Of a DNA stretch of 64,000 bases, positions 38,669 through 40,915 are shown piece by piece. The stretch comes from Tequatrovirus LF73P3: the sequence record OZ035756.1, one strand, 5' to 3'. Under the pieces are notes generated by a model. It saw nothing but the letters and a program-made list of their open reading frames with translations. It searched no databases and was not told the origin of the DNA. Every line of letters starts with the position of its first letter. Within the stretch, counting starts at the first letter, position 1. A program made the translations under genes and the position numbers.

Positions 38669-38756
38669 TTAAAATCCTTGAAATAATTTATCGGTTGGTT
38701 ATTAATTATTTATTACTTTGTTATTATCCGTAACAGCATTCTCTATGTGATTCAAA

Positions 38757-38792
38757 CTAAAAAGCCCCAACCTTTCGGTCGGGGCTAAGCCT
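38757..38792 (-). terminator. strong rho-independent terminator ending the tRNA/stable-RNA transcription unit
   Basis: Minus strand GCCCCGACC-GAAA-GGUUGGGGC (9 bp stem) followed by UUUUUAG. Confidence 0.75.
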
Positions 38793-38794
38793 TG

Positions 38795-39090
38795 CGGCAA
38801 CCTTGTCGGGGTTCCACCTGCTAAGGCAAGTGTTTGTACGAAACGCCGGGATTCGAACCCGGTTATTAAGCAGTTGACGCTACTCAATATTTTTAAAAGG
38901 CCATATCTCGACCATATCCGAACGTTCCGTCAAAAACGCTACTCGGCTTACGGCAAAGATATTTCCTCGAATCGATAATTCGATGCGCCGTTTCTGCTGT
39001 GATAGTAAAGAATCAGAACACAGTAAAACTGTGGGAGAAACTATACTCCAGGGAACATCAGTCCGACGACTTACCGGTAGCGACCCGGTT
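38795..39090 (-). ncRNA. candidate small stable RNA(s) with tRNA-like T-arm (not a canonical tRNA)
   Basis: Minus strand CCGGG-UUCGAAU-CCCGG T-arm-like hairpin at 38845-38865, locally GC-rich, between tRNA-Arg unit and the terminator. Confidence 0.4.
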
Positions 39091-39092
39091 TC

Positions 39093-39443
39093 TTAATATT
39101 CTTTTAAAGCATCAATCTGTTCACGACGTTTACGCCATAAATCAATTGCTTCATACGCAGATTCAGCATTTCGAATTGGACGGCATTTATATAAAGACTT
39201 GTGATTTTGATATTGTGTAGATAATGGAATTTTATCTAAAAGGTCTTTACGTTCAAAGTATTCGTAACCATCTAAACCAAATGAACGATTTTTGAGAAAT
39301 TGCCAATGACCATATTCATTTTCGACATAAACATAATCCGCGTGTTGATAAAGCAAATTAATTACACGTTCAGAAATAACAGTGTCATTGTGATTAAAAT
39401 AAAATGTTAAATCATGAACTACTAAATAAACATTACCTTTCAT
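39093..39443 (-). CDS. hypothetical protein within tRNA region
   Basis: 116 aa ORF starting 17 nt downstream of tRNA-Arg. Confidence 0.45.
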   Translation of the reverse strand: MKGNVYLVVHDLTFYFNHNDTVISERVINLLYQHADYVYVENEYGHWQFLKNRSFGLDGYEYFERKDLLDKIPLSTQYQNHKSLYKCRPIRNAESAYEAIDLWRKRREQIDALKEY

Positions 39444-39459: not shown

Positions 39460-39535
39460 TGGTCGAGGCAGTAGGGATCGAACCTACGACCTAGGACTTA
39501 GAAGGTCCTTGCTCTTCCTTCTGAGCTATGCCTCG
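39460..39535 (-). tRNA. tRNA-Arg (anticodon UCU)
   Basis: Cloverleaf by hand: 7-bp acceptor CGAGGCA/UGCCUCG, anticodon loop CUUCUAA, T-loop GGUUCGAUCC, encoded CCA. Confidence 0.85.
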
Positions 39536-39538
39536 TAG

Positions 39539-40204
39539 TTAAAATTTCATTTTTCGACCTTTAAACCATCCTTCTGGAATTGGGTCAGTTTTCTTAATAC
39601 GTTTAGAAACTTTTTCATCTAATGAATGAATCCACATCATACCAAATTGGGAATTCTTTTCACCTTTTTGGTGATTATTTTTAGCGTGAATTTCTTTCAT
39701 TTTATTAATAGTTTCAAGAGTATGATGCTTATTTAAAAATCGGCTATTATTTAAAAATTTTTCTTTGTATTCAGGAGTTGACCACAAACGTTTAAATACA
39801 TTTGAACCATTTTTACGATATTTTTCTTGAAGTAAAATATCATTTTTAAAACGTGACTTAAACGATTTAGCTCCTTTTAAACTAGCGTCTTTCTTCTGAT
39901 TTAGCATCTCAGGAATATTTATATGATCCCATCCACCTTCACCGCCAAGTTTTAAATTATACACATCAGGTCTATTTAAAAACTCTTCTGTGACAATATT
40001 TTTCTCGGCTTCAAGCATAGATTCTTTATCGTCAAAATATTCTAATATTTCTTTAGAAAAATTTTCTATACCATACCTGTCTTGGGCTCTTTTTAATAAT
40101 TTACCAGAACCCATATATCCATCATCTAAATTTTCGGTAGAATGCACACCAATATAAATTTTATTATTAATTTTATTTGTTATTTTATAAAGATAAAAAT
40201 GCAT
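39539..40204 (-). CDS. segB: GIY-YIG homing endonuclease SegB
   Basis: 221 aa from MHFYLYKITNKINNKIYIGVHS (GIY-YIG) ... GYMGSGKLL; track ORF N-extension runs into tRNA genes. Confidence 0.8.
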   Translation of the reverse strand: MHFYLYKITNKINNKIYIGVHSTENLDDGYMGSGKLLKRAQDRYGIENFSKEILEYFDDKESMLEAEKNIVTEEFLNRPDVYNLKLGGEGGWDHINIPEMLNQKKDASLKGAKSFKSRFKNDILLQEKYRKNGSNVFKRLWSTPEYKEKFLNNSRFLNKHHTLETINKMKEIHAKNNHQKGEKNSQFGMMWIHSLDEKVSKRIKKTDPIPEGWFKGRKMKF

Positions 40205-40250
40205 ATCAGTCCCTAATAAAGAACTGAGCGTCTCACGACGAGTCATAAAT

Positions 40251-40337
40251 TGGTGGGGAGTGATGGAGTCGAACCACCCGAGTCGCAATGACAATGGATT
40301 TACAGTCCACACCGCTACCTCTACGGGATAACTCCCC
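40251..40337 (-). tRNA. class-II tRNA with anticodon GUA (tRNA-Tyr-like)
   Basis: Hand fold: perfect 7-bp acceptor GGGGAGU/ACUCCCC, anticodon loop CUGUAAA, long variable arm, T-loop UUCGACU, encoded CCA. Confidence 0.6.
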
Positions 40338-40346
40338 TAATTAATT

Positions 40347-40423
40347 TGGTGACCCAGACCAGATTTGAACTGGTAACCTTTCCCTTATGAGGGGACTGCT
40401 GCTAACCATTGAGCTACAGGGCC
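40347..40423 (-). tRNA. tRNA-Ile (anticodon CAU, presumably lysidine-modified)
   Basis: GGCCCUGUAGCUCAAUGGUUAGCAG...CUCAUAA...GGUUCAAAUC...ACCA. Confidence 0.8.
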
Positions 40424-40424
40424 T

Positions 40425-40500
40425 TGGTGCTGATTGACGGAATCGAACCGCCGACATCCTCATTACAAGTGAGGCGCTCTACCTACTGAGCTAAATCAGC
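40425..40500 (-). tRNA. tRNA-Thr (anticodon UGU)
   Basis: GCUGAUUUAGCUCAGUAGGUAGAGC...CUUGUAA...GGUUCGAUUCC...ACCA. Confidence 0.85.
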
Positions 40501-40502
40501 AA

Positions 40503-40589
40503 CGGAGGCGATAGGATTTGAACCTATGAGTCGCCGGAGCGACTGCCGGTTTTCAAGACCGGTGCATTAAACCACTCTGCCACGCCTCC
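40503..40589 (-). tRNA. tRNA-Ser (anticodon UGA), class II
   Basis: GGAGGCGUGGCAGAGUGG...CUUGAAA..., long variable arm, no encoded CCA. Confidence 0.85.
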
Positions 40590-40591
40590 AG

Positions 40592-40665
40592 TCTCCGCGG
40601 CAGGATTTGAACCTGCGACATTCTGCTCCCAAAGCAGACACTCTACCAAACTGAGCTACACGGAG
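40592..40665 (-). tRNA. tRNA-Pro (anticodon UGG)
   Basis: CUCCGUGUAGCUCAGUUUGGUAGAG...UUUGGGA...GGUUCAAAUCC; abuts tRNA-Ser (dimeric precursor arrangement). Confidence 0.85.
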
Positions 40666-40675
40666 TAAATTAAAT

Positions 40676-40749
<74 letters not shown>

Positions 40750-40754
40750 AAATT

Positions 40755-40841
40755 TGGTGCGAGAAGTGGGACTCGAACCCACAAGGAAATCATTCCGCAG
40801 CATTTTAAGTGCTGTGTCTTTACCAATTTGACCATTCTCGC
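40755..40841 (-). tRNA. tRNA-Leu (anticodon UAA), class II
   Basis: GCGAGAAUGGUCAAAUUGGUAAAG...CUUAAAA...GGUUCGAGUCCCACUUCUCGCACCA. Confidence 0.9.
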
Positions 40842-40842
40842 G

Positions 40843-40915
40843 CTGGGAATAAAGGACTCGAACCTTTGCATCTAGCAGTCAAAGTGCTATGCCTTACCAA
40901 CTTGGCTAATTCCCA
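40843..40915 (-). tRNA. tRNA-Gln (anticodon UUG)
   Basis: UGGGAAUUAGCCAAGUUGGUAAGGC...CUUUGAC...GGUUCGAGUCC; directly abuts tRNA-Leu. Confidence 0.85.

Follow-up and report, generated by a model that had tools for sequence, protein, structure and literature searches.

A T6-type tRNA-Tyr(GUA) gene with a long connector to its D stem in the tRNA cluster of a T4-like phage

We found that positions 40251-40337 on the minus strand of the window (i.e. the whole 64-kb stretch of DNA that was analyzed) are very probably a functional T6-type tRNA-Tyr(GUA) gene, the orthologue of the tRNA-Tyr genes of phages T6 and T2. This gene is already known and has been characterized functionally in T6; hence, it is not new as a gene, and the only point that may be new is the conserved architecture of its connector, the 4-5 nt that join the acceptor stem to the D stem. 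Any novelty that the preliminary description of this DNA, made from the sequence alone, may have implied did not hold, since the gene is annotated in T6, T2, RB7, PST, and hundreds more, and experiments have been done on the T6 copy (PMC13096335).

The window comes from a T4-like phage (Tequatrovirus). The 24-kb stretch around tRNA-Tyr is approximately 96-97% identical to phages such as P922, EcNP1, and Nami, and the 1.6 kb around the gene has 98.8% identity with Salmonella phage GRNsp7. Using ARAGORN on the 64 kb, we found only nine tRNAs, all on the minus strand: a cluster at 40251-40915 and tRNA-Arg at 39460-39535. Their minus-strand order is Gln, Leu, Gly, Pro, Ser, Thr, Ile(CAU), and Tyr(GUA), followed by segB and then by tRNA-Arg, and tRNA-Tyr closes the first of the phage's tRNA sub-clusters. 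ARAGORN called tRNA-Tyr(gta) with the exact coordinates 40251-40337 (87 nt, including an encoded CCA), and GenBank and RefSeq records also annotate tRNA-Tyr; both agree with the tRNA-Tyr(GUA) identity given in the preliminary description. The ARAGORN set also bears out its count, in that tRNA-Tyr is a ninth tRNA relative to the eight of T4 (X03016).

The upstream neighbor is tRNA-Ile(CAU) (40347-40423, minus strand), which is separated from tRNA-Tyr by a 9-nt spacer; ARAGORN labels it 'Met', and it corresponds to the tRNA-Ile of T4. Directly downstream, the list of open reading frames has segB (39539-40204, minus strand), which encodes a GIY-YIG homing endonuclease of 221 aa (Pfam GIY-YIG with 26.1 bits; PHROG 314, homing endonuclease). 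Between tRNA-Tyr and segB, a putative 9-bp hairpin followed by a U-rich run over the segB ATG (40206-40227, minus strand) was seen by consensus scan only.

The 87 nt form a class-II cloverleaf, and all of the stems and loops that had been listed for it in the preliminary description were confirmed on the minus strand, by the sequence and by ARAGORN. The acceptor stem has 7 bp, with GGGGAGU (40331-40337) pairing with ACUCCCC (40255-40261) and G1-C72 as the first pair. It is joined to the D stem by the connector UAUC (40327-40330), which is non-canonical in that it has 4 nt whereas canonical tRNAs have 2 nt. In the D arm (40312-40326), CCGU (40323-40326) pairs with GCGG (40312-40315) through three Watson-Crick pairs and one U-G pair and encloses the 7-nt loop AGAGGUA with G18 G19. 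The anticodon arm (40294-40310) consists of the 5-bp stem GUGGA/UCCAU and the loop CUGUAAA, in which U33 precedes the anticodon GUA (40301-40303) and a purine occupies position 37 after it. The long variable arm UGUCAUUGCGACUCG (40279-40293) has 15 nt with the 3-bp stem GUC/GAC and is identical to that of T6, the T arm is GGUGG-UUCGACU-CCAUC (40262-40278), and the gene ends with the discriminator A73 (40254) and the encoded CCA (40251-40253), which together occupy 40251-40254. The conserved core of tRNA is present, i.e. U8 at the start of the connector, A14, G18 G19, and the T-loop UUCRA.

Relatives were collected as phage tRNA-Tyr(GUA) genes from IMG/VR (two pattern scans) and from GenBank phages, and 174 distinct sequences were parsed. 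We defined the family by the variable-arm end CUCG together with the T loop UUCGACU, a criterion that is independent of the D arm, and this gave 61 distinct sequences. Cloverleaf pairing in this family exceeds chance, and the cloverleaf is under selection: with the 4-nt connector, it is 98.9% paired over the 61 relatives (79.5% for shuffles) and has compensatory changes at 20 of 24 pairs, values that 0 of 500 shuffles reached and that slid controls came nowhere near. Compensatory changes were found at all seven pairs of the acceptor stem, and the variable-arm stem GUC/GAC covaries at two of its three pairs. The anticodon loop is nearly invariant in the family, with only position 32 varying (C/U), A73 is invariant, and G1-C72 is found in 56 of the 61 members. 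The fold of the single sequence (z-score of -0.91, with a minimum-energy structure that differs from the cloverleaf) is uninformative for tRNA-Tyr and not diagnostic.

The same comparison places the D stem after a long connector. A perfect 4-bp D stem follows a 4-nt connector in 56 of the 61 family members and a 5-nt connector in 5 of 61, and a fully paired D stem in the canonical 2-nt register was found in 0 of the 61. When the D stem is placed after the 4-nt connector, 100% of its pairs form among the 61 relatives, and 4 of 4 pairs have compensatory changes. In contrast, the canonical D stem drawn by ARAGORN (2-nt connector, UCCC/GCGG with a C-C mismatch) reaches 52.9% pairing, one of its pairs forms in 0 of the 61, and compensatory changes occur at 0 of 4 pairs; the corresponding cloverleaf energies are -27.5 kcal/mol for the 4-nt connector versus -20.8 kcal/mol for the canonical 2 nt. 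Hence, the ARAGORN D arm was ruled out by the comparative counts, and it is 6.7 kcal/mol worse. The preliminary description had called the D arm irregular with a 4-nt linker, which was right, and the comparison refines it to the connector UAUC and the stem CCGU/GCGG.

The D stems of the family are usually CCGU/GCGG, and CUGU/GCAG, CCAG/CUGG, UCAG/CUGA, and UCGU/GCGA also occur; the stems CGGU/GCCG and CCGC/GCGG belong to other phage tRNA-Tyr genes, likewise with a 4-nt connector. Since 89 of the remaining 113 phage tRNA-Tyr genes have the ordinary 2-nt connector and a 3-bp stem, the long-connector form is a distinct class rather than a parsing artefact. In a review of non-canonical tRNAs, a connector of 2 nt is given as the rule and no such long-connector tRNA-Tyr is listed (PMC7609411), the study of T6 tRNA-Tyr makes no mention of its D arm (PMC13096335), and in a limited, non-exhaustive search of the literature we found no description of a long (4-nt) connector in tRNA-Tyr. 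We put forward, tentatively and with more doubt than confidence, that the family is an undescribed structural class of tRNA-Tyr with a connector of 4-5 nt, a D stem that has the full 4 bp, and a minimal 7-8-nt D loop. If confirmed, this would interest tRNA biologists, as a working tRNA with a 4-nt connector that is compatible with TyrRS.

The Rfam tRNA model RF00005 matches tRNA-Tyr at 40256-40335 with 30.2 bits, a small margin above the gathering score of 29, and the other eight tRNAs score 54-75 bits. Such a low covariance-model score would suit a decaying tRNA pseudogene, or a DNA relic that is retained only as a SegB target or recombination site, as would the 'Pseudo' and 'OTHER' labels on relatives and the finding that SegB cuts inside tRNA genes (PMC13096335). 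We consider this explanation very improbable. To attain the D stem with the 4-nt connector, RF00005 has to displace the acceptor stem by two bases, and this shift, with the mismatches that it costs, accounts for the 30.2 bits; hence, the weak score reflects an unusual shape and not decay. It is also a trait of the whole family, whose members score 29.9-39.1 bits or fall below threshold (53.4 bits for E. coli tyrU); RF00005 reports no match for the T5-like, Felix-like, CF1, TJE1, and Sf14 copies, and ARAGORN misses 5 of 14 fetched family members. The T5-like members thus share the low score, and the tRNA-Tyr genes of T5, SP15, and a Klebsiella phage are functional (PMC11555353). Decay is further opposed by the fully paired D stem with its compensatory changes and by the near-complete cloverleaf pairing of the 61 sequences, which come from unrelated phage families, as well as by the T6 RNA, which is detected and active in rescue (PMC13096335).

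Other kinds of RNA have hardly any probability here, namely one of the known non-tRNA stable RNAs of T4 (species 1 or species 2), a tRNA-Sec-like RNA, or a suppressor tRNA. The preliminary description had allowed for a known non-tRNA stable RNA; the homologues of species 1 and species 2 RNA map elsewhere, to approximately 38759-39093, so identity with either was ruled out by map position. The tRNA-Sec model gives 34.4 bits, slightly over the general tRNA model, but its own gathering score of 47 is not reached, the anticodon reads GUA instead of UCA, and the implied 9-bp acceptor stem would break two covarying pairs of the T stem. Hence, the tRNA-Sec-like reading was ruled out by its sub-gathering score, the wrong anticodon, and the T-stem covariation.

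The 87 nt have matches in 1,389 phage records, with at least 99% identity in 143 of them and 95-99% in another 365. In the T2, T6, and RB phages, which the preliminary description had named for comparison, the same gene is annotated as tRNA-Tyr (T2, T6, and RB7); the genes annotated as tRNA-Tyr in RB7, GiZh, JoYop, and P8 are identical to that of the window, and the annotation is also found in PST, GRNsp7, and many others. Records that use tRNAscan-SE or PGAP label the gene tRNA-Tyr, and PGAP does so on E. coli plasmids. Across the database, labels vary among tRNA-Tyr, 'tRNA-Pseudo-GTA' (a relative), 'tRNA-OTHER' (others), and none. Since the long connector lowers the scores of the whole family to the cut-offs of standard tRNA detectors or under them, and since family members are missed or variably labelled, phage tRNA-Tyr is under-counted in surveys of anti-defence tRNAs. 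Hence, the connector has relevance for annotation, in that misses by Rfam and ARAGORN and mixed database labels hide phage tRNA-Tyr genes.

The exact Ile-Tyr-segB junction of the window was found in only 23 database records (at least 80% coverage), and the T4-type Ile-segB junction without tRNA-Tyr was found in approximately 100. With 23 junction records versus the many tRNA matches, many more phages carry tRNA-Tyr without segB as a neighbor. The long-connector class is present in Tequatrovirus, Karamvirus, Moonvirus, Phapecoctavirus, Felixounavirus, Mooglevirus, and the Enterococcus Schiekvirus, in the T5-like Tequintavirus, Epseptimavirus, and Sugarlandvirus, and in Vequintavirus (rV5-like), where it is 95-97% identical to the window gene. 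Among 5,426 complete E. coli genomes, 269 have it on plasmids whose content resembles that of phage-plasmids, and none has it on a chromosome. The class is common, almost unchanged, to unrelated virulent coliphages and E. coli phage-plasmids. Similarity to the rV5-like, Felix-like, T5-like, Karamvirus, and phage-plasmid loci stops within approximately 6 nt of the tRNA. Since similarity ends at the edges of the tRNA, the tRNA gene itself is the unit shared between phage families, and movement of a larger cassette between them was ruled out because the flanks are not shared beyond this distance.

We also scanned bacteria with a pattern of the D arm plus anticodon (one genome per species) and found matches in Lachnospiraceae, Cytophagales (Chryseolinea and relatives), Tahibacter, and others, of which 100 of the 105 parsed have a 4-nt connector. 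The bacterial copies have mixed neighborhoods, solitary or, for many, within tRNA arrays, and the thrU-tyrU-glyT-thrT-tufB context was not seen among the neighborhoods inspected.

In T6, tRNA-Tyr has been detected by northern blot (Chihara et al., Nat Commun 2026; PMC13096335), and it was described there as relatively unstable and as cleaved by Septu. The target of Septu EcB88 in tRNA-Tyr is the variable arm, where the host tRNA is cut at C48/A49 and the T6 tRNA at C48 (PMC13096335); since the T6 tRNA is cleaved too, it is not a nuclease-resistant variant. Over-expression of tRNA-Tyr rescues T6 from Septu EcB88, and deletion of the tRNA region sensitizes the phage. The T6 escape mutants contain tandem repeats of a 718-bp unit, made of tRNA-Tyr and a C-terminally truncated segB, and these repeats arise via microhomology and require SegB catalysis, UvsX, and UvsY (PMC13096335).

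We found that the window matches this T6 module. The variable arm is identical, and C48, the base that Septu cuts in the T6 tRNA, is position 40290 of the window. The GIY-YIG segB is intact, and the segB region has 98.7% nucleotide identity with T6. A CTAAT microhomology is located at the 5' edge of the tRNA-Tyr gene (40337-40341), with the same sequence and spacing in T6; its CTAAT partner is within the 3' part of segB, approximately 27 codons before the stop (39619-39623), exactly 718 bp away. Hence, the window phage carries a T6-type tRNA-Tyr/segB module with the same amplification geometry. Expression, rescue, and amplification are results obtained with T6, to which the window phage is likened by its sequence; by this likeness it is predicted, unlike T4, to be able to escape Septu-type tRNA-Tyr nucleases by amplification.

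Phages of the T5 family provide a second case. Azam et al. (2024; PMC11555353) found that retron-Eco7 depletes tRNA-Tyr through its PtuAB effector and that the T5-like phage SP15 needs its own tRNA-Tyr to escape this defence. Rescue was abolished when the anticodon of SP15 tRNA-Tyr was changed, and under the phage promoter, rescue was also obtained with tRNA-Tyr from T5, a Klebsiella phage, or even E. coli (PMC11555353). These results bear on whether the phage RNA is mainly a decoy, i.e. an RNA that absorbs a tRNA-Tyr-specific nuclease and is not a translational adaptor. The T6 work provides grounds for this idea, since Septu EcB88 cuts the T6 tRNA at the same C48 as in the host tRNA, over-expression of the phage tRNA partly protects host tRNA-Tyr, and the authors themselves write 'decoy or supplement' (PMC13096335). 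However, the window gene keeps all of the identity elements for charging (A73, GUA, the long arm, and the encoded CCA), and its acceptor stem covaries like that of a working tRNA. Moreover, the effect of the SP15 anticodon change and the rescue by E. coli tRNA-Tyr indicate supply of a usable tRNA rather than a decoy, so we regard a main role as decoy as improbable.

As a working tRNA-Tyr, the RNA would be transcribed together with the rest of the minus-strand tRNAs in a multi-tRNA precursor and would be released by host RNase P and 3' processing enzymes, with its CCA already encoded. Charging by host TyrRS is predicted from the bacterial identity set G34-U35-A36, A73, G1-C72, and long variable arm, all of which are present; the discriminator A73 and the first pair G1-C72 are identity elements of E. 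coli TyrRS. The charged tRNA would decode UAU and UAC. Its likeliest selected role would be to enlarge the tRNA-Tyr pool of the cell, chiefly when PtuAB-type nucleases (Septu EcB88 and retron-Eco7) cut the variable arm. In this role, dose would be decisive, and SegB and the microhomology spaced at 718 bp would permit tandem amplification of tRNA-Tyr with truncated segB under nuclease pressure. We have somewhat less confidence in defence evasion as the main role than in the gene being a functional T6-type tRNA-Tyr.

Tyrosine codons constitute 4.37% of the 14,258 codons in the long open reading frames of the window, and 78% of them are UAU. This frequency is about 1.5 times the average of the E. 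coli proteome. Both the frequency and the strong UAU bias are consistent with a working tRNA-Tyr that is kept mainly for UAU/UAC demand in late protein synthesis, with its anti-defence value incidental, and phage tRNAs are commonly explained by codon compensation, a view that PMC13096335 quotes as the prevailing one. This explanation is compatible with supply of the tRNA-Tyr pool; as the main reason for keeping the gene, we consider it possible but rather unlikely. Phage T4 and the approximately 100 phages with the T4-type junction have the same A+T-rich coding style but not the gene, the only phenotypes reported for the tRNA-Tyr of T6 and the T5 family are those of defence evasion, and the GUA anticodon brings no decoding capacity beyond that of host tRNA-Tyr. 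Since T4 has no tRNA-Tyr despite the same general codon usage, tRNA-Tyr is dispensable in the laboratory.

If the altered core of the long-connector class shifts recognition by modification enzymes or by tRNA-targeting nucleases while TyrRS still accepts the tRNA, this could explain why the phage version has spread rather than a copy of host tRNA-Tyr.

Compared with the host, the window gene shares with E. coli tRNA-Tyr (tyrU, tyrT, and tyrV) class II, the anticodon GUA, the loop CUGUAAA, A73, and G1-C72, as well as the GUC/GAC stem of the variable arm and the encoded CCA. In contrast, E. coli tyrU is only 59.8% identical to it, its core is canonical (a connector of 2 nt, a D stem of 3 bp, and a long D loop), and its Rfam score is 53.4 versus 30.2 bits. 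Using blastn with tRNA-Tyr against the 5,426 E. coli genomes, we found no chromosomal match even at E = 10. Hence, origin from host tRNA-Tyr was ruled out by both the low identity to tyrU and the lack of a chromosomal blastn match.

The T4 cluster (X03016) has the same order as that of the window (Gln, Leu, Gly, Pro, Ser, Thr, Ile/segB/Arg, species 2, and species 1), with 94-97% identity for the genes in common. In place of the CCA, spacer, and tRNA-Tyr, T4 has an unrelated sequence of approximately 40 bases, which includes a putative terminator hairpin, between tRNA-Ile and ORF5 (segB). A degraded remnant of tRNA-Tyr in T4 was ruled out, since alignment of this spacer of approximately 40 nt shows no homology.

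For the T5-like phages, the sequence comparison was made with BB1. The BB1 tRNA-Tyr is 80.7% identical to the window gene and shares with it the 4-nt connector, CCGU/GCGG as the D stem, and UUCGACU as the T loop, and its variable arm is nearly identical. The role of tRNA-Tyr in the T5 family is the same, namely tRNA-Tyr supply against a PtuAB-type nuclease. In contrast, the T5-family gene belongs to a large tRNA-rich region, has a strong promoter of its own, and lacks SegB; its dose comes from transcription and not from amplification.

In T6, tRNA-Tyr(GUA) (MH550421, 66473-66559; labelled 'tRNA-Tyr-GUA') has the same site between tRNA-Ile(CAU) and segB and the same length. The phages differ around the gene, in that the window phage has tRNA-Ser and tRNA-Pro, both of which are absent in T6, and an additional 116-aa open reading frame after tRNA-Arg. 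The two tRNA-Tyr genes are identical at 85 of 87 positions (97.7%), including the whole variable arm with C48. In the anticodon stem, a G-U pair of T6 is G-C in the window, and in the T stem, a G-C pair of T6 is G-U in the window; hence, both differences are G-C/G-U exchanges within stems.

The tRNA-Tyr(GUA) gene (40251-40337, minus strand) belongs to a phage tRNA-Tyr family with a long connector between the acceptor and D stems, and we found that standard tools handle this family poorly. The tRNA-Tyr genes of T5-like BB1, Felixounavirus XTG1, CF1, TJE1 and Sf14 fall below the Rfam tRNA gathering score, and ARAGORN made no tRNA-Tyr call for Pet-CM3-4, TSP7_1, CF1, TJE1 or Sf14. Moreover, several such phage records either leave the gene without annotation or tag it as Pseudo or OTHER. 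Hence, the long-connector phage tRNA-Tyr family is systematically under-called.

The family extends beyond phage genomes. Members that are 90-94% identical lie on E. coli plasmids of ~70-120 kb, including NZ_CP024264.1 (4001-4087) and 272 further plasmid records. Among 5,426 complete E. coli genomes, 269 have the plasmid tRNA-Tyr and none has a chromosomal copy of it. On NZ_CP024264.1, the one plasmid inspected, the gene sits within an Asn-Tyr-Thr-Ser tRNA group with DNA ligase, PhoH and integrase as neighbours, and by this neighbourhood the plasmid looks like a phage-plasmid. We also found tRNA-Tyr with the 4-nt connector and the CCGU/GCGG D stem in bacterial genome contigs, among them those of Lachnospiraceae, Cytophagales and Tahibacter. 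In the Chryseolinea group, the copies have C1-G72 as first pair, which is typical of archaeal and eukaryotic tRNA-Tyr and not of bacterial tRNA-Tyr.

ARAGORN and many GenBank records call the neighbouring tRNA with anticodon CAU (40347-40423, minus strand) Met; despite this label, it is the tRNA-Ile of T4. Its acceptor stem contains a U-U mismatch, a G-A pair tops its anticodon stem, and its Rfam score (53.9) is the lowest among the canonical eight tRNAs of the window. Opposite three tRNA genes, on the plus strand, are sub-threshold Rfam matches to 'Plastid-ycf2 5'UTR' (40427-40500, 39462-39535 and 40757-40841), which we rejected as artefacts because the model apparently resembles antisense tRNA. 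The genes for tRNA-Ser and tRNA-Pro (40502-40665) are shared by the window and T4, whereas T6 lacks both. Hence, the tRNA content of close relatives differs gene by gene.

Between tRNA-Tyr and segB lies a hairpin (40206-40227, minus strand) that could restrict read-through into segB or else conceal the segB start; in T4, a 'potential terminator' hairpin occupies the corresponding place. The T4 stable RNAs species 2 and species 1 have homologues at ~38759-39093 (minus strand; 90.6% identity to the T4 cluster, X03016); no function is known to have been assigned to either RNA. These homologues overlap with a 61-aa TTG ORF called mechanically (38702-38887), which is unlikely to be a real gene. In the window, the species 2 homologue is separated from tRNA-Arg by the insertion of a 116-aa ORF (39093-39443, minus strand), which had no Pfam match and belongs to PHROG 3355, listed there as of unknown function. 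In contrast, species 2 RNA directly adjoins tRNA-Arg in both T4 and T6, while the Salmonella phage GRNsp7 has the 116-aa ORF insertion in common with the window.
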